Part shown: positions 6,201 to 64,000 of the stretch, piece after piece
How the letters are laid out: each line of letters starts with the position of its first letter
How positions within the stretch are numbered: position 1 is the stretch's first letter
Assembly: GCF_035084215.1 (NCBI RefSeq)
Contig: NC_090327.1
Span: 7,936,001-8,000,000 of the forward strand
Origin: Heptranchias perlo
Lineage: Eukaryota
Reading direction: 5' to 3'
DNA length: 64,000 nucleotides
Notes under the pieces: generated by a model
The model's database searches: none
Told to the model about the DNA's origin: nothing
What the model saw: only the letters and a program-made list of their open reading frames with translations
Position numbers and translations under genes: made by a program

Positions 6201-6485
6201 TGTACCTCAAGCATTTTGCTTTTATTTCCAAATTATAGCATTTGCAGTTTTTCTTTTTATAGAAAGAAATAACTTTGCATTTATATAGCGCCTTTCATGA
6301 CCTCATGACATCCCAAAGCGCTTTACAGCCAATGAAGTAGTTTTGAAGTGTAGTCACCGTTGTGATGTTGCAATGTTTCATCATTATTTCACATGAACCA
6401 TTAGAAATATGGGTATCTGACCACTTATACAGTTGGTAGCAAATGTTCTTGTAAAAAAAAAATGCAAATAAAACTATAGCCACAC

Positions 6486-6739
6486 CTGATCGTTCAGTTG
6501 CCGGATAGTCTTTTCAATGTGTGGCAGTAATCCCCGAAATGTGAACTCCTGAATGAACTGTCTAATTCGATCATGATCGGTCAGTGTTAAACTGAATCCA
6601 TGAGCACTCGAGCTGTTTTGCTTCACTGCATCATTCGTCGTCTCCACAGGCTTTGCTCGATTAGGACCATCAAGTCCCCCTGACTTCACAAGAACACCTT
6701 CCTGAAATGGATGGGATTTAAAGTTGTTTGGAATTCCAT
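6486..6739 (-). CDS. TRAPPC8: TRAPPC8 coding exon 7 (254 nt)
   Basis: ttttaacag / (D)GIPNNFKSHPFQ...HGFSLTLTDHDRIRQFIQEFTFRGLLPHIEKTIRQLNDQ / GTGTGG; overlaps ORF 6474..6689. Confidence 0.97.
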
Positions 6740-7687
6740 CTGTTAAAAATGAGAGAATGGTTATACATATATGCTGATCAATCTCCCAGGGAGTCGAGGC
6801 CTGTACTGTTGAAAAGTTTCCGCTCGATGCTCCTAAAAGAATGCGATTAACACATCAACCTGAAAACAGGGGATAAAAAAAAACAACCTTCTAGAATAGT
6901 AAATTGGACATGTACTTGAAGGGGACTAATCTGCAGGGCTATGGGGAAAAAGTTGGGGTGTGGGACTAAATTGGACAGTTCTTTCGAAGAGCTGGCACAG
7001 GCACGACAGGCCGAATGGCCGCCTTGTTTTGTAAGATACTATTCTAGGAACAATAGGGAGATTAAAAGTTAACGCAATAAACTGCAGAATTTCAACATTA
7101 TTTTTTTTTGACAACCCCAACAGGAAAACTGAACAGACAGAAACCAGCACAAACTACATACGTCACCACTAACAAAAGATTACCAATGAACACTGCAACA
7201 CAGCTAAGCAGACACCAGTCGATCAATAAATTGTACTGCTACACCTCTGAATCAAGATATTAATTGGCAACAGGGCACACGAATGAATATGAGCATCATC
7301 TAACAGTGAATAAAGATATGCAGATTGGAGTGAATTAATAAATTAACAGATCAACAGGCATAGCAATTAATAAATTAACAGAGCTGCAGGAGCCATTGAA
7401 ATAATATCCACTTCCTAACTCTTCCTGCCATTGTAGTTATTAACTGACTCACCAGTTTCACCGGCAGTTTGCATTTTAATGCGCTGAGGAGCAACATCAC
7501 AAGGGAACTACAGGAAATTGGATTAAAAATGGGGATGACTACATTAAAAAGGTTTACTTACTGAGAAGAGTTTCATTCTTCAGTAGCACACATTGAATAA
7601 AATGCGATTGAAATGATCTTGGGTCTTTTTTGGCAGGGTTCAGAGCCATCATAGAAGTGTAGCTGACCACAAAGTATTTTCTACATA

Positions 7688-8280
7688 AACTTAACTGGAC
7701 CAGCCACATAAATACTATGGCTACAACAGGACAGAGGCTCGGTATTCTGCGGCAAGTGACTCACCACCTGACTCCTGAAAGCCTTTCCACCATCTACGAG
7801 GCACAAGTCAGGAATACCTGGATGAGTGCAGCTCCAACACAAGAAGCTCGACATCATCCAGGGCAAAGCAGCCTGCTTGATTGGCACTCCATCCACCACC
7901 CTAAACATTCACTATCTACCACCTGCGCACCCTGGCTGCAGTGCAGCACTGCAGCAACTCAACAAAGCTTCTTCGACAGCACCTCCCAAACCCGCGACCT
8001 CTACCACCTGGAAGGACAAGAGCAGCAGGCACATGGGAACATCACCTGCACGTTCCCCTCCAAGTCACACATCATCCAGACTTGGAAATATGCCGCCGTT
8101 CCTTCATCGTCGCTGCGTCAAAATCCTGGAACTCCCTTCCACTGTAGGAGAACCTTCACCATACGGACTGCAGCAGTTCAAGGCGGCTGCTCACCGCCAC
8201 CTTCTCAAGGGCAATTAGGGATGGGCAATAAATGCTGGCCTCGCCAGCGACGCCCACATCCCATGAACGAATAAAAAAAA
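7688..8280 (+). mobile_element. Non-LTR LINE 3' fragment (CR1/Jockey group), partner of the SINEs at 18085 and 52099
   Basis: Frameshifted ORF2 tail (KLNWTSHINT...QRLGILRQV...IYEAQVR; KLDIIQGKAACLIG) ending gggcaattagggatgggcaataaatgctggcc...gaataaaaaaaa. Confidence 0.8.
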
Positions 8281-8862
8281 ATTACTCCAGGGCTAACAGT
8301 CAATCACCACCTCAGGATCCCCTATCATCTAAGAGCATTTTGTAGATTTTTACCCTATAAATAGCTGCTTCAATAAACAGCCACAATGTCTCAGGATAAG
8401 ATAATACGATAGGACAATAACACTGTTACCGAGACTGCTTATAAAATTTCTGTTTGATAAATAGGACATTCAGCAGTTATAGAGAAGACAAGCAACAAAA
8501 CTGGATAACCTGAAAAAACATACCAAATCGTGCACATTAATCTTTTAATAAAACTGAATATAAAATAGCTGGGATGGGATTCTAATATCCAATTTGTAAA
8601 CAATGTAAGACAACTAAATTCCTTCAGGCCAATAGCATACTCAGCCACGTTTTATTTTCCATTTAAAAGTGGGAATAAGCTCACAGTTCAGTTTATTTTA
8701 ATAGTAGATAGTTGCAGCCATTGAGAAACTGAACCAAATCTGGCTTTGATATTGGTCACCCTTTTACATTACAGGATACTCTGCTTAAAAGCAATTTGTT
8801 TTGCAACCATATTTTGCATAACCGCTACGTTTGCACATCTATCTTCATGTTTTCAGCTTTGA

Positions 8863-9008
8863 AATTACTTTAAGTTCCTCCCTCTCATTAGACGCTTGGT
8901 TCCCCACTATTTCTGGTACTTTTTTTTTGTGACTTCTACTGTGAAGACAGATATAAAATATTTGTTTAATATCTCTGCCATTTCCCCATTATAATTTCTC
9001 CTGTCTCG
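8863..9008 (-). mobile_element. Short inverted CR1 ORF2 fragment
   Basis: Reverse complement matches 10098-10245 (EMAEILNKYFISV). Confidence 0.75.
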
Positions 9009-9239
9009 AAGTAGAGGACACTGGTTGGCTACCAGTGAAGTACAAGATAGTAACCTAATCAATGGGTTCAAACAGCAAAAACACAAGTTGTTCATGGATG
9101 TTAGTTGATTAAATACGATTCTTTCATGACGTTGATCCAGCATTTATCGTATGTCAATGTTGTTACTTGCCCTAGTTAGCATTATTATTGTTAAATTTAG
9201 GAACAACTGCATTTAAACTAATGGACTTCAACGAAATGA

Positions 9240-11112
9240 AAATCAGGATGTAGAATCAGTATGGGTGATGCTAAGAAATATCAAGGGGCAGAAAACCACT
9301 GGTGGGAGTAGTTTACAGGCCCCTTATCAGTAGTCATAGCGTTGGACAGAGTATAAAATCAGGAAATTAGAGGAGCATGTAATAAGGGTAATGCAATAAC
9401 CATGGGGGACTTGAATCTTCATACAGACTGAGCAAACCAAATTGGCAAAAGTAGTTTGGAGGACGAGTTCATGGAATGCATCCGAGACAGTTTTCTAGAA
9501 CAATATGTCGAGAAACCAACTAGGGAACAGGCTATTTTAGATTTAGTATTGTGTAATGAGATAGGATTAATTAGTAATCCAATAATAAAAGGATCCTCTG
9601 GGGAACAGTGATCACAACACGATAGCATTTCATAGAGTTTGAGAATTATATAGTTAAGTCCGAAATTAGGGTCTTAAATTTAAACAAAGGCAATTATGTA
9701 GTTATGAAGGGTGAGTTGGTTAAGGTAGATTGGGAAATTAGATTAAAAGATATCAAGGTAGATAAACGGTGAACATTTAAAGAAATAATTCATAATTCCT
9801 GAATAAACATACCCTTGAAGAATAAAAATGGCACAGCAAAAGTGATCCAACCGTGGCTAACGAGAGAAGTTAAGGATAGTATTAGATTAAGAGGCTTACA
9901 ATGTTGTCAAAGAGTGGTAAGCCTGAAGATTGGGAGGGTTTTTAGAAATCAGCAAATGATAACCAAGGAATTGATAAAGATGGAGAAAATTGAACATGAG
10001 AGTAAATTAACAAGAAATATAAACAGATTGTAAGAGCTTCTACAAGTATATAAAAAGGAAGAGATTAGCGAAAGTAAACATGGGTCTATTCGAGGCCGAG
10101 ACACGAGAAATTATAATGGGGAATGAGGAAATGGCAGAGATATTAAACAAATATTTTATATCTGTCCTCACAGTAGAAGACAAAAAACATACCAGAAATA
10201 GTGGGGAACCAAGGGTCTAATGAGAGGGAGGAACTTAAAGTAATTAAGATTAGTAACAATAAAGTTTTAGAAAAATTAATGACTAAAAGCCAACAAATCC
10301 CCTGGACCTGATGGCCGACATCCTACGGTTTTAAGCGGTGGCTGCAGAGACAGTGGATGCATTGGTTTTGACCTTCCTGAATTCCCTAGATTCAAGAACA
10401 GTACCCATGGATTGGAAGGTAGCAAATGTAACCCCGCTATTCAAGAAAGGGAGAGAGAAAACAGGGAACCATAGGCCAGTTAGTCTGACATCAGTAGTTG
10501 GGAAAATGCTAGAATCTATTAAGGACACAGTAACAGGGCACTTACAAAATCATATGATTAGGCAGAGTCAACATGGTTTTATGAAAGGGAAATAGTGTTT
10601 GACAAATCTATGAGTTTTTTTTGAGGGTATAACAAGCAGGGTAGATAAGGGGGAACCAGTGGATATTTGGATTTTCAAAAGGCATTCAATAAAGTGCCAC
10701 ACAAGAGGTTGTTACACAAGATTAGGCTCATGGGATTGGGGGTAAATATATTAGCATGGATTGAGGATTACTTAACAGACAGACAGAGGACAGTAGGGAT
10801 AAACGGGTCATTTTCAGATTGGCAGGTTGTAACTAGTGGGGTGTTAGAGGGATCGGTGCTTGGGCCTCAGCTATTTACAATCTATTTTAATTACTTAGAT
10901 GAAGGGACAGAGTGTAATGTATCAAAGTTTGCTGATGATACAAAGCTAGGTGGGAAAGTAAGCTGTGAGGAGAACACAGAGTCTGCAAAGGGATAACGAC
11001 AGATTAAGTGAGTGGGCTAGGTGGCAGATGGAGTATAATGTGAGGTTATTCACTTTGGTGGGAAAAATAGAAAAAATTGAATATTTTTTAAATGGTGAGA
11101 AACTATTAAATG
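9240..11112 (+). mobile_element. CR1 LINE ORF2 remnant (endonuclease end to RT)
   Basis: Broken ORFs with [52 protein letters not shown]. Confidence 0.92.
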
Positions 11113-11490
11113 GCAGCTCAATATTCCTGGTTACATGGTTTTAAGACGAGATAGAGAGAGGGGGATTAAAAAAAGGAGGGGAGTGGCAATATTGGTTAAA
11201 GAAACAATTACGGCTGTGAGGGATGGTATGTTCGAAGGATCAAATGAGACCATAAGGGTTGAGCTATAGAACAAAAAAGGAGCAGTCACACTGCTGGGAG
11301 TGCGCTATAGAAACCCCCCCACACCCAAAGGGAGATAGAAGAGCAAATATGTGGGCAAATTTCCGAGAAGTGCAAAAACAATAGCGCAGTAATAGTTGGG
11401 GATTTCAACTACCCCAATATTAACTGGGATACAATCAGGGTAAAAGGTATCAAGGGCGAAGAATTCTTCGATTGCATCGGGAACTTTTAC
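11113..11490 (+). mobile_element. CR1 ORF2 APE-endonuclease fragment from a different copy
   Basis: QLNIPGY...KGGGVAILVKE...VIVGDFNYPNINWD motifs. Confidence 0.8.
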
Positions 11491-12305
11491 AATCATAGAA
11501 AATTTTTGGCACAGAAGGAGGCCCATCACGTCCGCACCGGCCGAAAACGAGCCACCCAGCACTTGGTCCATAGCCATGTAGGTTACGGCACTTCAGGTGC
11601 ACATCCAGGTACTTTTTAAAATGAGTGAGGGTTTCTGTCTCTACCACCCTTTCAGGCAATGAGTTCCAGACCCCCACCATCCTCTTGGTGAAAAAAATTC
11701 TCCTCAGCTCCCCTCTAACCCTTCTACCAATCACTTTAAATCTATGCCCCCTGGTTAATGACCTCTCTGCTGAGGGAAATAGGTCCTTCCTATCCACTCC
11801 ATCTAGGCCCCTCAATTTAATACACCTCAATTAAATCACCCCTCAGCCTCCTCTGTTGCAAGGAAAAAAAAACCCAGCCTATCCAATCTTTCCTCATAGC
11901 TAAAATTCTCCAGTCCTGGCAACATCCTCTCTAGTCTTTCCTGTAATGCGGTGACCAGAACTGTATGCAGTACTCAAGCTGTGGCCTAACTAGTGTTTTA
12001 TACAGTTCCAGCATAACCTCACTGCTCTTATATTCTATGCCTTGGCTAATAAAGGAAAGTATCCCATATGCCTTCTTAACCACCTTATCTACCTGTCCTG
12101 CTACCTTCAGGGATCTGTGGACATGCTCTCCCAGGTCCCTCACTTCCTCTTCACCTCTCAGTATCCTCCCATTTATTGTGTATTCCCTTGCCGTGTTTGC
12201 CCTCCCCAAATGCATTACCGTACATTTCTTTGGATTGAATTCCATTTGCCACTTTTCTGCCCACTTGACCAGTCCATTGATATCTTCCTGCAGTCTACAG
12301 CTTTC
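11491..12305 (-). mobile_element. CR1 LINE 3' portion
   Basis: ORFs 11931..12308 and 11450..11830 (LQEDINGLVKWAEKWQMEFN...LYKTLVRPQLEYCIQFWSPH; TRGHRFKV). Confidence 0.9.
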
Positions 12306-12814
12306 CACCGTTTCTGGAGGGAATATTCAGTGTTCTAACAACCCAGTGTAATTTTTTTTAAATCTATGCTGTTTCTTCATTCTTTTCATGATCTTAAATT
12401 TAAGTCCTCTAGTTACCAATGCACTGAAGTTTAAATAGTTTTTCCCTATTTATTTTAATAAAACTCCAGATAATTTTGAACACCTTGATCATATCGCCTC
12501 TTATTCTTCTCAATTCTAGAGAGAGAAAGACAAGACAGTTTTTCTAACCTTTCATGACTGAAGTCTCTCATCCTGGTACGTTATAATAAATTTCTTCTGT
12601 ACCCTCATGGCCTTGACATCCTCTCTAAACAAACCGATCACCAGTAACTCACCCAGGTGTTATATAGCTCAAAAAGCTCTCCGCATCAATTTATTTTTGA
12701 AGCAGAATAAAAATCTACATTTGTACCGCTGAGCTTTTCTCACTGTTCAATTGAACACAGCATAAAAATTTCTTACTCAGCATAACTTTCAAAAAATATA
12801 TATTCCACTGAGGA

Positions 12815-14852
12815 AAAAAGGGTGTAAAAGAAATGACAGCCATCCGTGGCTAAGTAAAGAAATTAAGGATAGTATCCGACTAAAAACAAGGACATATAAG
12901 GTAGCCAAACTTAGTGGGAGGATAGAAGATTGGGAAGTCTTCAAAAGACAGCAAAAAGTAACTAAAGGATTGATTAAGAAAGGGAAGATAGATTATGAAA
13001 ATAAATTAGCAAAAAATATAAAAAGATAGCAAGAGTTTCTACAGTTATATAAAAAGAAAAAGGGTGGCTAAGGCAAACGTAGGTCCTTTAGAGGATGAGA
13101 CCGGGAAATTAATGGTGGGAAACATGGAGATGGCAAAAATGCTGAACAAATATTTTGTTTCAGTCTTTACGGTAGAGGACACTAAGAATATCCCAACTCT
13201 GGACAAACAGGGGGCTCTGGGGGGTGGGGGCGGGAGGAGCTAAATACGATTAAAATCACTAAGGAATTGGTACTCAGTAAATTAACGGGACTCAAGGCGG
13301 ATAAATCCCCTGGACCTGATGGCTTACATCCGAGGGTCTTGAGGGAAGTGGCAGCAGGGATTGTGGATGCTTTGGTAATAATTTTCCAAAATTCTCTGGA
13401 CTCGGCAAAGGTCCCGGCAGATTGGAAAACCGCTAATGTAACACCCTTATTTAAAAAGGGTAGTAAGCAGAAGGCTGGAAATTATAGACCAGTTAGCCTG
13501 ACATCTGTGGTGGGTAAAATTTTGGAGTCTATTATTAAGGAGACAGTAGCAGAACATTTGGATAAACATAATTTAATAGGACAAAGTCAGCATGGCTTTA
13601 CAAAGGGGAAGTCATGTCTGACAAATTTGCTTGAGTTCTTTGAGGATATAATGTACAGGGTGGATAAAGGGGAACCAGTGGACGTAGTGTATTTGGACTT
13701 CCAGAAGGCATTAGACAAGGTGCCACATAAAAGATTATTGCTCAAGATAAAGAATCACTGGATTGGGGGTAATATTCTGGCATGGGTGGAGGATTGGTTA
13801 TCTAACAGGAAGCAGAGAGTTGGGATAAATGGTACATTCTCGGACTGGCAACCTGTAGCCAGTGGTGTTCCGCAGGGGTCGGTGCTGGGTCCCCAACTCT
13901 TTACAATCTATATTAACGATTTGGAGGAGGGGACCGAGTGTAACATATCAAAGTTTGCAGATGATACAAAGATGGGAGGGAACGTAGAGAGTGAAGAGGA
14001 CATAAAAAACCTACAAGGGGATATAGACAGGCTGGGTGAGTGGGCGGAGATTTGGCAGATGCAATACAATATTGGAAAATGTGAGGTTATGCACTATGGC
14101 AGGAAAAATCAGAGAGCAAGTTATTATCTTAATGGCGAGAAACTGGAAAGTACTGCAGTACAAAGGGATCTGGGGGTCCTAGTGCAAGAAAATCAAAAAG
14201 TTAGTACGCAGGTGCAGCAGGTGATCGAGAAGGCCAACGGAATGTTGGCTTTTATTGCTCGGGGGATAGAATATAAAAACAGGGAGGTATTGCTGCAGTT
14301 ATATAAGGTATTGGTGAGACCGCACCTGGAATACTGCATACAGTTTTGGTCTCCATACTTAAGAAAAGACATACTTGCTCGAGGCAGTACAAAGAAGGTT
14401 CACTCGGTTAATCCCGGGGATGAGGGGGTGGACATATGAGGAGAGGTTGAGTAGATTGGGACTCTACTCATTGGAGTTCAGAAGAATGAGAGGTGATCTT
14501 ATTGAAACATAAAAGATTGTGAAGGGGCTTGATTGGGTGGATGCGGTGAGGTTGTTCCCAAGGATGGGTGAAACTAGAACTAGGGGGCATAATCTTCGAA
14601 TAAGGGGCTGCTCTTTCAAAACGGAGATGAGGAGAAACTTCTTCACTCAGAGGGTAGTAGGTCTGTGGAATTTGCTGCCCCAGGAAGCTGTGGAAGCTAC
14701 ATCATTAAATAAATTTAAAGCAGAAATAGACAGTTTCCTAGAAGTAAAGGGAATTGGACATGAATTTAGATTTGAGGTTAGGATCAGATCAGCCATGAGC
14801 AGGCTCGAGGGGCCGATTGGCCTACTCCTGCTCCTATTTCTTATGTTCTTAT
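12815..14852 (+). mobile_element. Young 5'-truncated CR1 LINE with an uninterrupted RT domain (ORF 13267-14439)
   Basis: 390-aa ORF with [48 protein letters not shown]; frameshift near the C-terminus; intact 3' tail. Confidence 0.95.
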
Positions 14853-14994
14853 AACATTTTCAGAAACGTTAAAGATAACTTGAGAACAGTGAATGAGGAG
14901 TTTGTTGGAATCTGCAACCTGCTCACAATGGCAATGTACTTGATCGCCAATTGCTCAGTGTAATAGTTTACACTACAAAATATCACGTTTATTA

Positions 14995-15388
14995 CAGTCC
15001 CCACCACTTATAGCAGGCGTGTCAGTGTCAGCGCAATTTGCCCACTATGCACTGTAACCTGTGTAAACAAGAAATTTTTTAAAGAAGCACGGAGGGAATC
15101 TTCATCCTCCGTCTCTGCACTCCAGACTGTCTAAATGCCCCAATAATGATCCCAGCGAGCAAAAGATCTGGTCAGTTTCAACTGCAGTGTTAGAGCTGAA
15201 CGGGACCAAAGTACACAGCGACCTTTTAACAAGGTATGAACAGCTGCTTAAACTGCCCAAAATAATCGGTGTGCTTAATGCGGTTTAAACAGCTTTTGTA
15301 ATTGACTGCTATGGTGACAGCGAATGGTCAGAACCATATGCCTGATACAGGTGATTGTCCGGGATAACAGGGAAAGTGGTGGGGACTG
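14995..15388. mobile_element. Tc1/mariner-superfamily (pogo/Tigger-like) MITE
   Basis: Perfect 15-bp TIRs CAGTCCCCACCACTT (14995-15009 and 15374-15388), each flanked by TA; related partial copy at ~42285. Confidence 0.8.
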
Positions 15389-15496
15389 TATTCAAAAATA
15401 GGTGAGCCACTGAATTTACAGAAGAATCATATGTATAAATAAAAACTTTTCTGGATCAGACAGCAACAATGAAAATGTGAATGTGTGATGAATAGT

Positions 15497-15673
15497 CAAA
15501 CAAATAAAAAGTAAAATACTGCAGGTGTTGGAAAACTGAAATAAACACAAAATGATAGATGCAGTCCGGAGGTCAGGCAAAGCAACCATTCCCTCATCAA
15601 CACCCTGGTCCACTCCTCCATCATCCCAATCACCTGCTCTCCTTCCCCCAGTACTTTCACATGCACACGCAGG
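15497..15673. mobile_element. Penelope-like element fragment (inverted terminal piece plus ORF piece)
   Basis: aaatactgcaggtgttggaaaactgaaataaacacaaaatg resembles the reverse complement of the PLE 3' end seen at 6180-6260 and 42720-42770; followed by a C-rich PLE-like body. Confidence 0.5.
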
Positions 15674-16234
15674 TTGATACTGTGTATACGGACATTCAAA
15701 AGGCATTTGATAAAGTATCACATAAGACATGTCAGCAAAATTGAAGCCCATGGGAATTAAGGGACAGTGGCAGCGTGGTTACAAAATTGGGTAAGGGACA
15801 AAAAGTAGAGAGTAGTGGTGAACAGTTGTTTTTCAGACTGGAGGGAAGTATACAGTGGTGTTCCCCAAGGGTCAGTATTTGGACCACTGCTCTTTTGATA
15901 TATATTAATGATCTGGACTTGGGTATGTAGTGTATAATTTCAATGTTTGCAGATAGCATGAAACTCAGAAATGTAAACAATGTGGAGGATAGTAACAGAC
16001 TTCAGGAGGACAAAGACTGGTGAAATGGGCAGACACATGGCAGATGAAATTTAACACAAGTGTGAAGTGATACATTTTGATTGGAAGAATGAGAAGCAAT
16101 ATAAACGAAATGGTATAATTTTAAAGGGGGTGCAGGAACACAGACACCTGGGGGTGCACATACACAAATCTTTGAAGGTGGCAGGACAGGTGGCTGTTAA
16201 AAAAGCATATAGGATCCTGGGCTTTATTAAGAGA

Positions 16235-16514
16235 TGATGTGGAGATGCCGGTGATGGACTGGGGTTGACAATTGTAAACAATTTTACAACACCAAGTTAT
16301 AGTCCAGCAATTTTATTTTAAATTCACAAGCTTTCGGAGGCTTCCTCCTTCCTCAGGTAAATGTTCAGGAGCTCCTCGAAGCCTACGCATTTATAAATGC
16401 GTAGGCTTCGAGGAGCTCCTGAACATTTACCTGAGGAAGGAGGAAGCCTCCGAAAGCTTGTGAATTTAAAATAAAATTGCTGGACTATAACTTGGTGTTG
16501 TAAAATTGTTTACA
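16235..16514 (-). mobile_element. Penelope-like inverted pseudo-LTR insertion: 242-bp perfect palindrome plus 38-bp tail
   Basis: Arms 16273-16393 and 16394-16514 are exact reverse complements; TSD TTTATTAAGAGA at 16223-16234 and 16515-16526. Confidence 0.85.
16425..16465 (+). ncRNA. Minimal type I hammerhead ribozyme motif (mirror copy at 16322-16362 on the minus strand)
   Basis: Stem I ATTTAC/GTGAAT; core CTGAGGA; stem II GGAGG-AAG-CCTCC; GAAA; self-complementary AGCT in place of stem III; cleavage triplet CUU. Confidence 0.75.
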
Positions 16515-17117
16515 TTTATTAAGAGAGGCGTAGAGTACAAAAGCAAGGAAGTTATGCTAAACCTTTACAAAACACTGGTTAGGCCTCAGCTGGAATATAG
16601 TGTTTAATTCTGGGCACCACACTTTAGGAAGGATGTCAAGGCCTTAGAGAGGGTGCAGAAGAGATTTACTAGAATGGTACTAGGGATGAGGGTCTTCAGT
16701 CATGGAGAGACTGGAGAAGCTGGGGTTGTTCTCCTTAGAACAGAGAAGGGCAGATTTGATAGAGATGCTCAAAATCATGATCGGTTTTGTTAAGGAGAAA
16801 CTGTTCCCAGTGGCAGAAGGGTCAGTAACCAGAGGACACAGATTTAAGGTGATCAGCAAAAGAGCCAGAAGGGACATGAAAAGATTTTTTTTTTAAAACA
16901 GTGAGTTACGATCTGGAATGCACTGCCCGAAAGGGTGGTGGAAGCAGATTCAATAGTAACTTTCAAAAGGGAATTGGATAAATACTTCAAGGGAAAAAAT
17001 TTACAGGGCTATGGGGAAAGAGCAGGGGAGTGGGACTAATTGGATAGCTCTTTCAAAGAACCGGCACTGGCACGATGGGCTGAATGACCTCTTCCTGTGC
17101 TGTACCCCATTATGATA

Positions 17118-17905
17118 CCTATCCTTTCACCTCCTCCCATACCACGATCCAGGGCTCCAAACATTACTTCGCTACTCTCAACGTGGTCGCCTTTACATTG
17201 GGGAGATCAAACACAGATTGAGTGATCGCTTTGCTGAAGTGTTCTGCCCGCAAGTGCAATTCCGAGCTCCCGGTCGCTTGCCACTGGAGAGTTCCATCCC
17301 ACTCTCGTCGATCTGCCCTTGGGCCTTCTACACTGTTCTAATGAAGCTCGACACAAGTTCATGGAACAGCACCTCATATTTGCACTTGCAACCCTCTGCC
17401 CTGAGCACTAACTTCAACAACTTCCAACCTTGACCACAGCTCCCATTTTCTCGGTCACTGGGTGCTGGTAACGTGGGATGGGTGTACCAGCCCTTCTGGG
17501 GATGAGGACGGTTGTGGGTCGGTGCTTGGGATGGTGATTCCCCTACCGGTACTCGGCTGGCAGGGTGCTTTGCACCCCTGGTGACTACTTGCCTTCTTCT
17601 TCCATCATGCCCCAGTGCCACTGGAGCCAGTTTTTCCATCCTTCCCTCCCCGCTTTGCTATTCCGCTTTAAACATGCACACATCCTCTGTCTTGCACATA
17701 GTTTTTATTTCTCTAATCTCTTCTCAAGCCTCCATTTGTCTTATGCTATTATCGCTGCTGCCATTTAATCATCTGCTCTCCACCTAAATCATTTTACAGA
17801 TGATTCTTTTCTTGTTTATGTGGTCATTTTTCCCCGACCCCTTTTCCCTTGGTCTGCTCCTCCTTATAAGCCAAGTGTTTCCACCATTTTCTGTTTTTAT
17901 TTCAA
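17118..17905 (+). mobile_element. Penelope-like element remnant (GIY-YIG endonuclease region)
   Basis: 17191-17238 reads LYIGEIKHRLSDRFAE, then EQHLI...LQPS...NFNNF; degenerate PLE 3' end (ccattttctgtttttatttc) near 17885-17903. Confidence 0.7.
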
Positions 17906-18084
17906 AGAAACACTTGAGTGCCCATAAAAATCCATTTTATGAGCATTTCCCCACAATCCACTAGTCTCCCAAACCATTTTTTAAAACTTTACAAATAACC
18001 ACCCTCTTTTCTTTTGAAAAAAATGCAACAGTAGTGCCTACGAGGACAAACCCCAAATAACTTCAGCAACTTTAGCAATGTCTG

Positions 18085-18495
18085 AGTACGGTAATGTGGT
18101 GGTTATTTACTGGACTAGTAATCCAGAGAACGCAAGTTCAAATCCCACCATGGGCAGTTTGAGAATTTGAATTCAGTTTCAATAATCTAGAAATAAAAAG
18201 CTGATATCAGTAAAAGTGGCCACGAAGCTGTCTGATTGTCATAAAAGCCCAAGTGGTTCACTGCTGTGCTTTAGGGAAGGAAACCTGCCGTCCTTACCCA
18301 GCTTGCCCAATATATAACTCCAGCCCCACAACACCATGGTTGACTCTTAACTGTCCTCTATCAACACCGGTTCAAAGAATACAGATGTCAACAGTTCAAG
18401 AAGGCCCACCAACCACCTTCTCAGGGCAACTAGGGATGGACAATTAATGCCAACCTTAACAGCGATGCCCACATCCCGAGAATTAATATAAAAAA
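18085..18495 (+). mobile_element. tRNA-derived SINE with a LINE-derived tail
   Basis: Pol III-like head (ggtaatgtggtggtt...gttcaaatccc); body and tail homologous to 52099-52528; tail shared with the LINE at 7688-8280. Confidence 0.75.
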
Positions 18496-19296
18496 CCTCA
18501 GCTATATGTACCACTTTCTTTAAAGCAGAAGTTGTTGGTGACGTAAGGTGGGACGGTCAGTGTCAGAGGGAAAGGGGAAGCAAGTTAATAATTTGCGTTT
18601 AGTACAGTGCTGGCAGGAGAGTTTGCATCTAGTTGGCCTGGTTCTTTTTCTTTTCAGGACTGGCAACCCTGTTTTGCAGCACTTTCTTTTCATCGCAGTC
18701 CTGCTGCATTTGCGTTTTTTCCTTTCTCCAATTTCTCACGCTTTGTTGCCCTTTCATGACTGTGGCGCACCAACCCCCCAACCTAACTAATTGCACTTTT
18801 TTTTTTGTCTTTCTACTGCTTCATTGGTTGAAAACTCATGATGCAAAAGAGACGTTTGCAGGCTATTACCCCCCATGACTGGGGTAACCGTTTTGCCCCA
18901 CCCCACCCCCCACTTTTCTCTATTTTCCGCAAACTTATCACAACATCCCCTAATCTTTCTCAGGTCTGAAGGAGTACGCACCCCAAACATTATCTTGTCC
19001 TTTGCCTTTACATATGTTGACTGACCCACAATGTATTTTCAGCATTTTCTATTCTTGGCTTCAAGTTGGCTTTTCTGCACATGCTATTTGTACAGAGATA
19101 CAGCACAGAAGGAGGCCATTCTGCCCATTGTGCCTGTGCCAGATTTGAATGGTTGCAAAATGAAATTCAAATCACAGTTTGCCATTGTATATAAGGGTAT
19201 GTAAAGTGAATTCATCAATTTTAACCATCTCTCCTTCTCAACGAACAGCTCCAAAATGGAGACAACGCCTGTTTTTTTTTTTAAAATGACCTTTAC

Positions 19297-19393
19297 CATT
19301 GATCGAATTATCCAACCCATCCAGCTCTAGTGCATTCGTGTAGTTTTCTTTATTCTTGTTGACAAGCGAAACAAGATCATCTTCACAGATCTC
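19297..19393 (-). CDS. TRAPPC8: TRAPPC8 coding exon 6 (97 nt)
   Basis: tgtttattaaag / EICEDDLVSLVNKNKENYTNALELDGLDNSIN+G / GTAAAG; phase 0 in and phase 1 out link exons 5 and 7; LDGLDN motif retained. Absent from the ORF track. Confidence 0.9.
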
Positions 19394-19819
19394 CTTTAAT
19401 AAACAGATAAGACAAATTCAAAAATACTTCATAGAATAACATTAAAATATAAAATTTAAAAATTGGGTACAAGGTACATAGTCTCAAAAAAGGTACAACT
19501 GAGGGACACAAGGTTATGCCAAGCTCAGACCGATGGGATTTCCTCTCTGATGGATACAATGACGTTGTGATTCCAGCCTAGTTTCAATTCGTTTGGAGTC
19601 TACAGAGCAAAATGGCAATTTCAGTTGGGGCCATAAGGGGGTAATGGGCCACGATGGTGCAGAGTGCGGGATTTCCTTCAGAAGGTGGGGTTTTACTCCG
19701 ACTGTACCCGACTTCTGCACCAACATCCACTTTAGTAAGTATTGAAAAAAAGTAAATTGGAATTAGTGTGTTAGACAAAGCTGACAACTCAACATACTAA
19801 TTATTATTTTTAAACTTAC

Positions 19820-20125
19820 TTCAGTGCAGTGCTGAGGGAGTACTGAAGTGATGAGCCGTTAAATCTCTCTGCTTGGGTTAAACCCTGTCTTCTTTGACAA
19901 CATTCAAAAAGCACGGAAGTTCTTCCACAGTCCTACCCAACATTTATCCCTCTACCACCACCAAAAGCCGATTAGCTGGTGACTTACTTCATTGCTATTT
20001 ATGGGACTTCAATTGGCTGCCCTATTTGCCTGAACAAACAGTGATTACACTTAAAAAGTACTTCAGCGGCTGTGAAGCACTTTGGGACGTCCCGAGGTCA
20101 GTCTGTCGAAAGAGATATATCCAAG
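19820..20125 (+). mobile_element. Degenerate Deu-domain SINE abutting the exon 5 donor
   Basis: cagtgcagtgctgagggagtactg...acatttatccctc...gtgaagcactttgggacgtcccgagg, matching the copy at 23061. Confidence 0.65.
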
Positions 20126-20132
20126 TGCCTAC

Positions 20133-20286
20133 CTGGTTTTGCAGATTATTTCGATTCAAATACTGACTCCAAGGGTCGGGGATCTGCTCATCTGCTCCAC
20201 TTGATGGTATTCGAGAGTTAAACTTCAGCAAGTAGCATCCCTGTGTCCCATATCTCTGTTTCATTTCTTCGTAAACAGATTCAGCT
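20133..20286 (-). CDS. TRAPPC8: TRAPPC8 coding exon 5 (154 nt)
   Basis: tgtcctgcag / (R)AESVYEEMKQRYGTQGCYLLKFNSRIPSSGADEQIPDPWSQYLNRNNLQNQ / GTAGGC. Confidence 0.97.
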
Positions 20287-22461
20287 CTGCAGGACAAGTT
20301 AGAAACCAGAGGTAACATGGTTCAAATCAGAGGTATTAATCCAACAGTGAAATAAAAAGGAAACAGTAAAAATAAACGCTGCACGTACCAACTACTGTGG
20401 ATATTAATCTGGTCAGTGTTCAGATATATATCAAAATAGTGGACAAAGTACTACATTTGTAGATGCAAGTGGTTACATCTCTATCAAATAGTTCCATATA
20501 ACCACAAGAAACTACCACGGTAAAATCCTACAATGTACAAAAATTCAACTTCAAAATTGGTCAATTATTGAAATATGGATTTCTCAAAAGAAATGTTGTC
20601 CTTTTAATAAGGGAAATTCAAACTTCAACTGGCAAGCATGTGGTTTCTTTTCACACAACTTAAAAGAATACACCAGAATAGGGCCCTCCAATGCCATTGC
20701 CCTTAAGTGTTCACAAAAAAAAAATCCTGCCTTTTAAAATTTGGAATATTTTGCTAAGTAGCAGCTTGCCTTGCGGCTAAGGTTACGATTTTGCAGTATT
20801 TAGGATACTGGCCATTGGAATACATAATGATCAGTCATCTCCCAATTGGTTCTCTTTAAAAGCTAGCTTTCGTCAACAAAAAAATGCTCAGTAAGGCTAA
20901 CGGAGTTTTCCCACCAAGAAAATTTAAGTCTTTACACAGTTTTAATAGTAAAGTCGCAAATTAATGATATGATACTGATCAACTGTGTTCAACTATCAGG
21001 TTTATCACAAATGTTAAAAGTAAACATGAAGCTATTTGAATTCAAGACAAAACTGATCTTGTAGGACAGATAAAGGGTACTGTTGTCTGTGTTACTTCAT
21101 ATAATTGATCACATTTTAGAAAACAGTACAATTTGCACTTGATGTGATAGCATTCATTTATTGATCCTTAACATGACACGATTTAATGCCAGCCAACCTA
21201 TTACAATAGCAATTTTTCCAATTAATTTCTTCTCCACATATTATGGATAATGATTCAAACCTGGAAAAGCTGTTTCATAGGAACAGGAGTAGGCATTCAG
21301 CCCCTTGAGCCTGTTTCGCCGATAGAGATGTCCATCAAGTCATCAATATGACATTTCCCTTTCAATACCTCCAATCAAGTTCTTTCAATGAGGATCAATT
21401 AACAATTATAAACAAAAGAATATTTTTCTCATTTCAATTTTAAACCCTAACGCTCTGACAATTGGTTTGAAGTGTTTTATTAATAATTCAGCCACCTTTT
21501 TTGTGACATGGTGTCTAGCTTCCATAGAATAGTTGACTTGGTTTCTTGAACGTTAGTTCTACTAGGGCCCAACATGCATGAACAAAACTACTCAGCTTCC
21601 ACTTTTATAAGCACTAAGCATAACAGACATAATAGGCAAGCATCCTTGGAATCTCAAACAAATGTTTTTCTTCCGATAGTCTCCCAGCACCATGGAATTA
21701 CAGAACTAGATAAATATCTGTTTCCCCGCCCCCCCCTCCCCAGTGCACTTCAAATGGTGAATGGTAATGAACCATGAGCCTGCCTTTGCAGAAAGGCTGA
21801 AATGGCTCAAGTTGTGATAGCATAGACTTTTTGTGGCCACCTTTCTGACTTGGGCTGAGCTTCAACGATCATGAAAAAGGAATTGCTTTGAGTTACAGCT
21901 TAGGGCACCCATCTATTCTGCTAAGGACTGTTCAGAACAATGCTAATGTGGCCACTATTGTCTTTTATACAGCAGAGTGCAGAAGAACATCTGGTCACTC
22001 TGGGTGCAATTTTCTCAGTGTACCAAGTAATTTTGTTATGTAGAATAATGATATCCTACTTGTTGACTGGTTGAATAAATGAGATCTTGGATTTTTCTCC
22101 TTTAATACTGTTCATAACGAAGTCAGAAGGAGATCAGAATCTATGCTGCAGATCCCTTATTACCACAAGTGCTGTACCATGACATGCTGACAAGGGCACT
22201 ACAGCCATTCTCTTGCCGTCCTCTTCCCTCTCCCAGAATATGCCACATCAAGCACATAAATTATTGAAGGAAACAAAAGACAAGAAATCAAGGGCTGCAA
22301 ACTCAGTGACAAAGCTTGGGAAGTCCAGAATTAAACCACTTAACTGCCTGAGAGAACACCTCGCCTCTAAGCTTGAGCCCATATTCCCTGATTTTAGACT
22401 TTGAAGGCAATTTTCACCATTTCTAAAGAGCTATCCCAAGATTAAACAAAAAAAACCTTAC

Positions 22462-25830: not shown

Positions 25831-26425
25831 CAACGGCCAACACCTAAAAATGACGATATCCACAGTTTTATTCTATAGTGAAAGACTAGAACCACTGCCA
25901 ACATTTAATGATGTAAAATTAACTCGAGATACTTTCAAAGTGAGCTAAACTCAAACCTGCAGTGTAAAGGAGCCATCACTTCCCACTTCTGTATATGAAG
26001 TACACTTCTTCAAACACTTTTAGTTACACTCATTCTGTACCTTAGATTGGGATTAAATATGTGGACAGGGTTGCTGAAGAAAGAAAGAGCTGAATTTGGC
26101 CACATATGGCTTTTATGAGGGGCTGGTAGGCTACCCTGCCATGGCTGTAATTATAAAGACAGAATTGTGGAATGCAATCTCCAAAAACACCGGTTAAGTC
26201 TCTGAACCCCACGTAATAACTGAATTTAACTTATTTCGTCACTGTAAATCAATGGTACTGTCGCACTCAGTTATACACAAATAGTGCGTGAAGTGCACAC
26301 GCATCCAAGACTTCTCAAAAAACCCCAACCTATAGTTTCCTTGATTCACAGCAAAAATACATTTTACCTGGTCATAAGCATATTCAGCTCAGGTATTATC
26401 CACACACCAGTCAGAAAAAGGATAC

Positions 26426-26515
26426 ATGCCAAATAGTGGTGTAGAAACTCGTGGTCTGATGGAGGCATGGATTGGAAGAAGCATTCCCTGTAGGCCTCAA
26501 ACCAGGGAGTGGTGG
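26426..26515 (-). CDS. TRAPPC8: TRAPPC8 coding exon 3 (90 nt)
   Basis: ctcttttag / (A)TTPWFEAYRECFFQSMPPSDHEFLHHYLA+T / GTATCCTTT. Confidence 0.96.
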
Positions 26516-26884
26516 CTAAAAGAGTACAGAAATCATAAAACACAAATAGTACTGATGAAATACTTTAAATATGTCAACAAAACAGGGAACGACTTAACGT
26601 ATAATTTATGTGAACAATTAGTTGAAGTTTACAATTTTATTTAGTGTGTGATGTCACCAACAACAAATTCTCACAAAAACAGAAAAAGTAATGTCAACTA
26701 CTTCACACATGAAAATAAGATTTTTGACTCATGCTTCATAAAATGTAGAAGTAATCATAATCACTAAGCCTTAATCCCATGGGGTATGGGAGTTGTGGCT
26801 AGAAGGGTTATTCATTGACTAAATAGAAATCAAACTGGACCTCTCAGTTAAATCCATCCAAAAGGAGCTCGAACTGTTGTAATG

Positions 26885-31725: not shown

Positions 31726-31881
31726 GTGGGGAAATTCCTCAGATTTGCTCCTGCTTTACCAGACTTCACTTTTCCAAAAGTGCACCAGAAATCCAGTTTA
31801 TGCACGTAAAGAGGATTTCTGGCACACTTCTGGCAAAGTAAAATCCAGCAAAGTGAGAACAGATCAGTGGAATTTTCCTCC
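31726..31881. repeat. Imperfect ~155-bp foldback (MITE-like hairpin)
   Basis: gggaaattcctcagatttgctc...aagtgcaccagaaatcc pairs with ggatttctggcacactt...gaacagatcagtggaattttcc. Confidence 0.65.
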
Positions 31882-42671: not shown

Positions 42672-42772
42672 CCGGTTCTGACGAAGGGTCATCGACCTGA
42701 AACGTTAATACTTTCTCCACAGATGCTGCCTCACTTGCTGAGCTTCTCCAGCATTTTCTGCTTTTATTTAAC
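42672..42772 (+). mobile_element. Penelope-like pLTR fragment with a hammerhead motif
   Basis: CTGACGA-AGGGTC-ATC-GACCT-GAAA-CGTT followed by cacagatgctgcc...ccagcattttctgcttttattt. Confidence 0.7.
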
Positions 42773-45452: not shown

Positions 45453-45552
45453 CAGTTCTGATGAAAGATCATCGATCTGAAACATTAACTGTTTCTTGCC
45501 ACAGCTGCTGCCCGACCTGTTGAGTATTTCCATTGTTTTCTATGTTTATTTA
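45453..45552 (+). mobile_element. Penelope-like pLTR fragment with a hammerhead motif
   Basis: CAGTT-CTGATGA-AAGATC-ATC-GATCT-GAAA-CATT-AACTG; same family as 42672. Confidence 0.7.
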
Positions 45553-62335: not shown

Positions 62336-63762
62336 GGTCCTCAGACTTGCCCGTCCCTCTATGCACAGGTGGCCAAAGATCTGGAGTGGTGTCCTGAATT
62401 GGTGCCGGAAGTTGAGGAGCAGCCCTTCCAAATAGTGGGCTCTGACAATTATTGTGGTATTTTATCTGTGCAAATTTCTTCCCTTCCCTCTATATCTCTC
62501 ACATACGTCTCATGTTCCTTTACCCATGCGCTCAATTCTTATCTCGTATTTTTAAAATCCAAAGATACACAGTAGCAGGGTGATAGGCAACATGTACCAT
62601 GATTGAGGTAGACGTTAGGATGAAGCAGTGAAGAAGTTGCCTGGAAGGTGATGAAGCACGTACAAGTGAAAGAGAAAGTTGCGATCGGTAAGGGGGATTG
62701 CCAGCCAAGAATACCCTGGGCAGTAGAGTCTGAAATCTTGCTGTACCCACGACATACTCATATGATGCATTTTGTTATGGTGTCTATCACGCTAAACAAA
62801 TCTTATTGTTTCTGGCCGAGGGTACGTAGGAAGATGTGAGGCAATATATACCAAGTTGACGGTGCAGGTAAGGAGGTATCACAAAAGTGCTACAACATAA
62901 GGTGGTGAGGCTGAGCAACTGCAGCCAAGAGAAACCAAAGGGCTGGGAGCAAAAGAGGTGGAGACCTGAACCTCAAAGTAATTGTGGTGCTGGGCTCTGG
63001 AATGATCTGTAGAATTGCAGTCTCAGCACTTAGACTGGGTTAGGGAGCCAAAATGCACTCGGGGCAGCCAGAGAAGCATCTGGAGCAGGTAAACAGACTT
63101 GACGAGCAAGTGTAGGAGACCTTTGCAGGCTGGTCCATTACTGTGAAATGCCTTGGGACGTTTTACTACGTTAAAAGGCACTACATCAACGCAAGTTGTT
63201 GTTCTCAAACCCCCCCCCACACCAGTTACTCCTACCCGAATCCTCCCTCTCATGCTGGTTTTCTCAACTAGTTATAAAAAGTAAATACTAAAAATATCTT
63301 ATGGCTGCTTTGAATCAACCACAAACAGGACATATAGAGAACGTTTTAATGAATCATCCACTTTACTCTGAATATCTCAAAACAATAGCGGTCACTTAAA
63401 ACGTGTTTAGCAAAAGCATTTATGCCACTTCATACAATATGTAATAGACCTATACAAAGTCACATTTCAGCTGATAATTCAGTACACATATATGCCACGA
63501 AGATTGCCCACACAACTTATGGATCCCCAAAATTTCTTAGTCTAAAAAGACTGCAAAATACTGTAACTGCAAGTGAAGCACGCGAATGCAAATGCTGGGG
63601 GGGTGGAAAAGAAAAAAAAAAAATCAGGGAATGTTTGCTAAACAAGCTTTTTGTTTTAATTTCCAACACCTGGAATTAAATGTAAACTTTAAACAGCTTC
63701 CATAAGCTGAAGTACCTTGCACAACCAAAATAATTGAAGTAAACAAGAAATTGAGAGCTTAC

Positions 63763-63957
63763 CGCTGATATTGAGATCATAATCTCCTGCTGTAATCACA
63801 TTAGCAACCAATCCTTCTGCAGGTTGACTGGCAGAAACCACCTCACTTAACAGCTTCCGAATGGCAGTCTGTTGTGGCGGTTGGGTAACAATGCTGGTAA
63901 CACTGATCCTCAGATTTTTAATAACATGGCTCTGGTTGTTAGGATCTCGCATATGAA
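63763..63957 (-). CDS. TRAPPC8: TRAPPC8 coding exon 2 (195 nt)
   Basis: tttttgtctag / (V)HMRDPNNQSHVIKNLRISVTSIVTQPPQQTAIRKLLSEVVSASQPAEGLVANVITAGDYDLNIS+G / GTAAGC. Confidence 0.97.
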
Positions 63958-64000
63958 CTAGACAAAAAGAAAAGCAGCAAAAATCACTAAACAGATTTAA

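Follow-up and report, generated by a model that had tools for sequence, protein, structure and literature searches.

Penelope-like elements (PLEs) leave insertions with a recognizable anatomy. According to PMC8557442, such insertions typically have an inverted, 5'-truncated copy by the 5' end and a tail of 30–40 bp, often at one end only, and the traits themselves have been listed for curators (PMC8969392). For instance, Adineta Pen2a combines an inverted pLTR, a 9-bp target-site duplication (TSD), a 31-bp tail, a two-way TATA and head-to-head junction palindromes (PMC3846280), while Penelope of D. virilis has inverted termini of variable size (PMC2377424). Metazoan PLEs also carry minimal hammerhead ribozymes (min-HHRs), marked by an extra base at 9/10.1, a G10.1-C11.1 pair, a palindromic 15.2-16.2 and a stem I of 4–6 bp (PMC4209133). 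The same study describes dual min-HHRs on opposite strands, 100–700 bp apart, including in Schistosoma; in its experiments, a single min-HHR showed no cleavage and dimers cleaved at a low level, and the dimer model of minimal hammerheads has been reviewed (PMC6765202).

A biochemical view of the process comes from Anolis (PMC11167929), where the PLE protein acts on AT-rich DNA, nicking and extending each of the two strands. Reverse transcription (RT) begins at two internal sites, between which the tail lies, and the RNA template is copied uncleaved; the Anolis hammerhead cuts only with the PLE protein, and the PLE is a predicted dimer. The origin of the inverted ends of PLEs is nonetheless still debated. 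In the literature covered, mostly titles and abstracts with few subscription papers, we found no account of PLE palindromes in a shark, nor of a leader that masks a PLE hammerhead.

Against this background we analyzed a 280-bp insert lying in one 64-kb stretch of shark DNA, hereafter the window. The insert is very probably a single retrotransposition product of an endonuclease-bearing (EN+) PLE, consisting of two severely 5'-truncated, hammerhead-bearing pLTR ends joined head-to-head. The search gave no parent ORF, so the assignment to PLEs is based on five features of the anatomy: a head-to-head inverted, 5'-truncated copy; a 38-bp tail on one side; a 12-bp TSD at an AT-rich target; a minimal type-I hammerhead in the pLTR, as recognized by our own descriptor; and a dispersed family with 5' truncation, as seen in contigs. 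All five fit the PLE origin proposed in the preliminary description. No RT or GIY-YIG ORF linked to the element turned up in the window, where a second copy of the insert was also sought and not found, or in scans of viral and metagenome collections. A pattern scan of viral contigs for the element returned 0 loci; nine metagenome-contig loci from the same kind of scan matched over only 20–21 nt each and were rejected as chance.

The insert and its host site

Remeasurement upheld every quantity first given for the insert, namely the exact palindrome, the one-sided 38-bp tail and the 12-bp TSD (Table 1). The two 121-bp arms meet with 0 mismatches and no loop, and no other perfect palindrome in the window has arms longer than 8 bp. 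The TSD 12-mer occurs just twice in the window on a search of both strands, its match extends no further in either direction, and the chance of such a match at a fixed place is 2e-7. Both outer ends of the insert finish in CA when read on the sense strand. The sense arm has a single ATG-led frame, which ends after 25 codons, in keeping with the original view of the insert as ORF-less: it encodes nothing.

Table 1 Features of the insert, the recipient LINE and the host gene (positions in the window)
Feature	Position	Strand	Remarks
Left TSD copy, 12 bp	16223..16234	+	present once at the empty site, which is collinear with paralogous CR1
PLE "tail", 38 bp, this side only	16235..16272	-	compare PMC8557442, PMC11167929
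Left arm, 5'-truncated pLTR-like end	16273..16393	-	reads in sense on the minus strand, that of the host gene
Right arm, tail-less inverted copy	16394..16514	+	identical to left arm
Right TSD copy, 12 bp	16515..16526	+	
Palindrome centre	16388..16399	.	putative TATA-box consensus match outward on both strands (16392 +, 16395 -)
Minimal type-I hammerhead, minus copy	16322..16362	-	C3 at 16356
Minimal type-I hammerhead, plus copy	16425..16465	+	predicted cut after 16459
Leader, 31 nt, centre to hammerhead	16394..16424	+	mirror 16363-16393 (-); predicted to pair with the 3' half of the hammerhead
AATAAA 3' of the hammerhead	16470..16475	+	mirror 16317-16312 (-); predicted paired in read-through RNA
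Older CR1-type LINE fragment, recipient of the insertion	15673..17100	+	~74% identical to two full-length paralogues in the window
TRAPPC8 exon ORF	63692-64000	-	PF12739 positions 44-109
TRAPPC8 exon ORF	26367-26564	-	PF12739 positions 116-149
TRAPPC8 exon ORF	20025-20321	-	PF12739 positions 200-255
TRAPPC8 exon ORF	6477-6854	-	PF12739 positions 247-302
TRAPPC8 intron, approximate, ~13 kb	6648..20114	-	between exon ORFs 20025-20321 and 6477-6854

The recipient is an older LINE fragment that we take to be CR1; the assignment to a LINE RT family rests on a separate ORF, the longest in the window (~13186-14439, plus strand, 417 codons, open; RVT_1, E 1e-28), and not on the recipient fragment itself. 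With the insert removed and one TSD copy kept, the site aligns to eight other CR1 stretches in the window, bearing out the claim of an insertion within an older CR1. Six of the eight span the TSD site entirely; in the columns shown, five of them are ungapped and one has gaps. None of these six carries the exact 12-mer, so the TSD duplicates the recipient's own, already diverged sequence. The word at the palindrome centre, TTTATAAA, is also found at the target site in one paralogous CR1 (16390-16397 versus 16223-16234).

The insert is younger than the CR1 that received it. How much younger is a wider question: 0 differences in 133 paired sites correspond to a divergence of at most 2.2% (95%), and at the mutation rate of another shark, the epaulette shark (7e-10 per generation; PMC10587355), identical arms permit up to ~1.6e7 generations. 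The "very recent" date first given to the insertion is accordingly unproven.

Around the insert lies the gene TRAPPC8, on the minus strand. Above the cut-off, 3 of 119 minus-strand ORFs match PF12739 (TRAPPC8/Trs85), as does 1 of 5 in a separate set; other Pfam matches in the exon scan fell below the cut-off and were disregarded. Because the exon matches are collinear with the profile, the insert can be placed inside an intron of ~13 kb, as had been proposed. A PDB search with a TRAPPC8 exon ORF gave 0 matches. On the host strand AATAAA is also present in each TSD copy, one of which predates the insertion. The antisense arm further contains a strong splice-donor-like word, CAG/GTAAAT (16433-16425 on the minus strand, mirrored at 16354-16362 on the plus strand), which comes first in the host pre-mRNA and is predicted to be paired in the hairpin.

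Each arm holds one minimal, dimer-type hammerhead followed by AATAAA, and on both points the earlier claim stands. A descriptor for minimal type-I hammerheads, self-built and modeled on the text of PMC4209133, matches three places in the window, one per arm (C3 at 16431 on the plus strand and 16356 on the minus strand) and a third at 45458 that belongs to another repeat family; it found nothing in 100 shuffled windows or in 20,000 arm shuffles. The motif comprises a 6-bp stem I, the CUGAGGA core, an extra A, a 5-bp stem II that opens with G-C and has a 3-nt loop, and GAAA, with a palindromic AGCU in place of stem III and a CUU triplet. Folded alone, it is predicted to form stem II with a probability of 0.96-1.0 and stem I with 0.59-0.98. 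An Rfam search at E<=1 gave 15 matches, none to a hammerhead family and all below the gathering score (hairpin matches).

Several neighboring repeats deserve mention in their own right. The second repeat family is present as single-arm copies at 42675-42770 and 45455-45552 (plus strand; 75.5% identical), with a minimal hammerhead-like core in the same layout; 45458 passes the descriptor and 42678 matches a relaxed core pattern only. This repeat is probably another PLE family. An older, frameshifted remnant at 15570-15660 and 17110-17430 (plus strand) is seemingly interrupted by the recipient CR1, and its translation recalls what we take to be the motifs of a PLE GIY-YIG endonuclease; searches with 17116-17430 did not bear this out, giving 0 Pfam families, one representative match that itself has no Pfam family, and no Atlas match. 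Short inverted matches flank the remnant (15407-15552 versus 17699-17904), and 23 bp match the second hammerhead family. Finally, 31729-31878 holds a decayed 150-bp palindrome with 72-nt arms that are 74% complementary and a 6-nt spacer; a hammerhead core is absent from it, and it resembles an old element of the MITE type.

Formation, family and rival origins

Taking the insert as a PLE product, we favor, with modest confidence, a twin-priming route. The PLE protein would nick both strands of the AT-rich site 12 nt apart, leaving 3' overhangs, and each 3'-OH would prime one cDNA, one at the tail-proximal RT start and the other at the start 38 nt upstream. After copying the uncleaved hammerhead, the two cDNAs would come together at the AT-rich, self-complementary centre, anneal there and then be repaired. 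Not only would the TSD and the one-sided tail follow from a single such event, but so would a palindrome without a loop. Strand nicking and extension, the two RT starts and the protein-assisted hammerhead are taken from the papers rather than from the insert, the joining step is our own conjecture, and one copy cannot discriminate between joining mechanisms. The endonuclease may, in addition, favor a word that is also found in its own pLTR.

The same PLE could have closed the palindrome in another way, which we regard as less likely but as the main rival. Here the cDNA would fold back at its self-complementary centre and prime itself, and an endonuclease would resolve the hairpin at the tail boundary; the difference concerns mechanism only, not the identity of the element. 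Self-priming, and not twin priming, is how Arkhipova et al. propose that head-to-head junction palindromes arise (PMC3846280), EN-mediated resolution has been suggested for the tail (PMC8557442), and no spacer would be visible if the loop had been a self-complementary one of 4 nt at the centre. Against this, the second arm ends exactly 38 nt short, a length class that the two RT starts seen in vitro explain, and both strands are extended in vitro (PMC11167929, for both points). Taken alone, the locus is of little consequence, being a single stump, within a 13-kb intron, of a large repeat family. The insert is a clean, unmutated record of PLE integration that preserves both nick positions, both RT starts and the junction, and with such stumps collected from across a genome, twin priming and fold-back could be told apart.

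Public sequencing runs offer a view of the family beyond the window. Contigs of four of 24 runs (X1, X5, X9 and X14) were compared with a query that ran from the left flank through the tail and one arm to 15 bases beyond the centre. None of the runs listed is recorded as RNA, although X5 may be. In the DNA run X1, each of the five listed element variants is carried by 113–124 contigs, which argues for a dispersed, multi-copy family with subfamilies. Summed contig depth in X1, which is no copy number, is 7.8-11.4e6 over 16245-16349, compared with 0.8-7.9e6 on the CR1 flank bins from 15975; toward the centre it drops to 4.9e6, 2.1e6 and 1.2e6, then to 5.7e4 just past it, falling from tail to centre as 5' truncation predicts. 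Among the variants listed (40 of 64 rows), the five in the element are all minority letters in X1 (22-46%) and seven flank rows are clear majority letters (73-96%), so this element copy is closer to the common sequence of its family than the CR1 is to its own. One X1 contig joins a CR1-like flank straight to the arm end, skipping 16234-16273, a weak case with a 22-letter side. In X14 the element is almost uncovered, and cover in X9 is mainly of the tail and absent over 16365-16408; such gaps in cover carry no weight.

A multi-copy family is also what one would expect of a non-autonomous mini-element, palindromic and akin to a retrozyme or MITE, mobilized as a fixed 280-bp unit, and animal retrozymes do derive from PLE pLTRs and are present in the one chondrichthyan sampled (bioRxiv 10.64898/2026.07.22.740005). 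We nevertheless consider this origin improbable. Retrozymes are defined there by at least two head-to-tail tandem units with a hammerhead in each, whereas the insert is one head-to-head pair. Furthermore, mean depth in X1 is 5.7e4 right of the centre versus 1.2e6 just left of it and ~1e7 near the tail (in contigs), a collapse from which it appears that most family sequence lacks the shared centre, and the read-through RNA of such a unit would be a perfect duplex.

Perfect palindromes without a loop are a known class of assembly artefact. One might suspect that a read folded back into a chimera, or that the spacer of a longer element was collapsed, the more so as assemblers have trouble with PLE insertions (PMC8557442) and the junctions of the insert at its own locus are spanned by no contig among the pieces listed from the four runs. 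The anatomy makes this reading more improbable still: the mirror ends at the arm end and is followed by the exact 12-bp TSD and collinear CR1, with the tail on one side, whereas in a fold-back read the mirror would take in the tail and flank as well. In two of the four runs (X1 and X5, from one sample), contigs extend over the 14 bases right of the centre; the raw data thus contain such centres, though not tied to the locus of the insert.

Ribozymes, leader and read-through RNA

If the insert is the PLE stump we take it for, its present-day effect depends on how read-through RNA folds. The potential for long dsRNA raised at the outset holds: the 121-bp duplex on the host strand has an MFE of -234.6 kcal/mol. 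Since the arms lie head-to-head, the antisense arm is transcribed first on either strand, and the hammerhead is already paired as it emerges. In the MFE folds of all seven truncation steps, the nascent bases are taken up into the hairpin, and at equilibrium the predicted probability of stems I and II in the read-through RNA of both strands is 0.0. The preliminary description had suggested self-cleavage ahead of the second arm; with the antisense arm preceding on both strands and the hammerhead masked, cleavage at that point is impossible. Its suggestion that an intronic poly(A) site might be used fares no better, the AATAAA of the element sitting in the second arm, predicted to be paired in the duplex. 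Any transcript contains just one sense hammerhead, while the min-HHR class works as dimers. An MFE fold of the dimer did not give the designed dimeric hammerhead, a result without weight because nearest-neighbor models leave the core unscored.

From these folds, the ribozymes are probably locked shut during transcription of the host gene. The insert today is probably an inert intronic passenger, the 121-bp duplex in the TRAPPC8 pre-mRNA masking both hammerhead and AATAAA. ADAR editing is plausibly the likeliest consequence of such a duplex, by analogy with Penelope in lizard and a palindromic Harbinger in frog, both heavily A-to-I edited (PMC5625713). Many such stumps in introns, if present, would be a large source of perfect dsRNA.

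The centre adds a further, more speculative dimension. On both strands it matches the TATA box (we assume the consensus TATAWAWR), which would make it a putative promoter, and an RNA start ~25-33 nt past the TATA word would coincide with stem I of the hammerhead. With a leader of 0–6 nt, stem II is predicted to form with a probability of 0.98-0.99 and stem I with 0.74-0.88; with a leader of at least 21 bases, the probability of stem II is 0.02 or less. In a post hoc test from one copy, five of 1000 leader shuffles blocked the hammerhead as strongly or gave as stable a duplex, and 137 of 1000 reached as low a total energy. It is conceivable, though doubtful, that the pLTR holds a promoter-tied ribozyme switch, in which short-leader RNA would fold the hammerhead and read-through would trap it, the TATA word serving as preferred joining point of the cDNAs. 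Loose ends in X5, among those listed, cluster at 16358 (21 contigs) and 16365 (7), with mixed sequence beyond; lying 37 and 30 nt past the TATA word, they are a weak hint of promoter-linked starts. On the other side, the promoter of D. virilis Penelope is TATA-less (PMC2377424), which counts against a switch, and the leader may instead be an old inverted remnant. Such a switch, if true, would explain how the PLE RT copies through an intact hammerhead, and loop-free palindromes would double as two-way promoters, giving a testable rule for head-to-head junctions.

It is hardly credible that the insert functions for the host, cutting the TRAPPC8 pre-mRNA through a working ribozyme or poly(A) site, even though the motif is intact and its second-arm copy reads in sense on the host strand. 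In predicted folds both the first arm and the hammerhead's own leader mask the ribozyme, which lacks a stem III and would need a dimer. A lone min-HHR gave no cleavage (PMC4209133), the Anolis PLE hammerhead requires the PLE protein (PMC11167929), and only one of nine Xenopus dimer constructs cleaved (bioRxiv 10.64898/2026.07.22.740005).

Place among described elements

The hammerhead of each arm shares all four PLE min-HHR marks of PMC4209133, and like that class it is type I without stem III. It differs from the Schistosoma min-HHR in its stem II, 5 bp here versus 7–8 bp there, and has CUU as its triplet; the two motifs stand ~60 bp apart in perfect arms, compared with 100–700 bp for the dual motifs of that study. 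The non-LTR retrozymes of bioRxiv 10.64898/2026.07.22.740005 are likewise ORF-less, pLTR-derived and furnished with a type I hammerhead, but form head-to-tail tandem arrays, whereas the insert is a single head-to-head insertion with a TSD.

PAc, a Poseidon element of Anolis carolinensis, resembles the insert in its AT-rich target, tail length, AC-rich ends and a hammerhead copied uncleaved (PMC11167929). Its ORF, however, begins at stem II, where the sense arm here offers only the short ATG-led frame that ends after 25 codons. The fullest likeness is to Adineta Pen2a_Av and Pen2_Av (PMC3846280), the scheme of PMC8557442 and D. virilis Penelope (PMC2377424), with which the insert has in common an inverted end, a palindromic junction and a one-sided tail of 30–40 bp. 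A short TSD (8–10 bp there, 12 here) and a two-way TATA-like word in the pLTR are also common to these EN+ PLE insertions. What sets the insert apart is that both arms are truncated to 121 bp, so that no ORF is left and the whole insert is palindromic; Poseidon and Neptune are the candidate clades for the element. The locus had been presented as unusual, a view that gives way to an anatomy already on record and a family in many copies: the insert is real, well preserved and ordinary, and fits the pattern described for PLEs.
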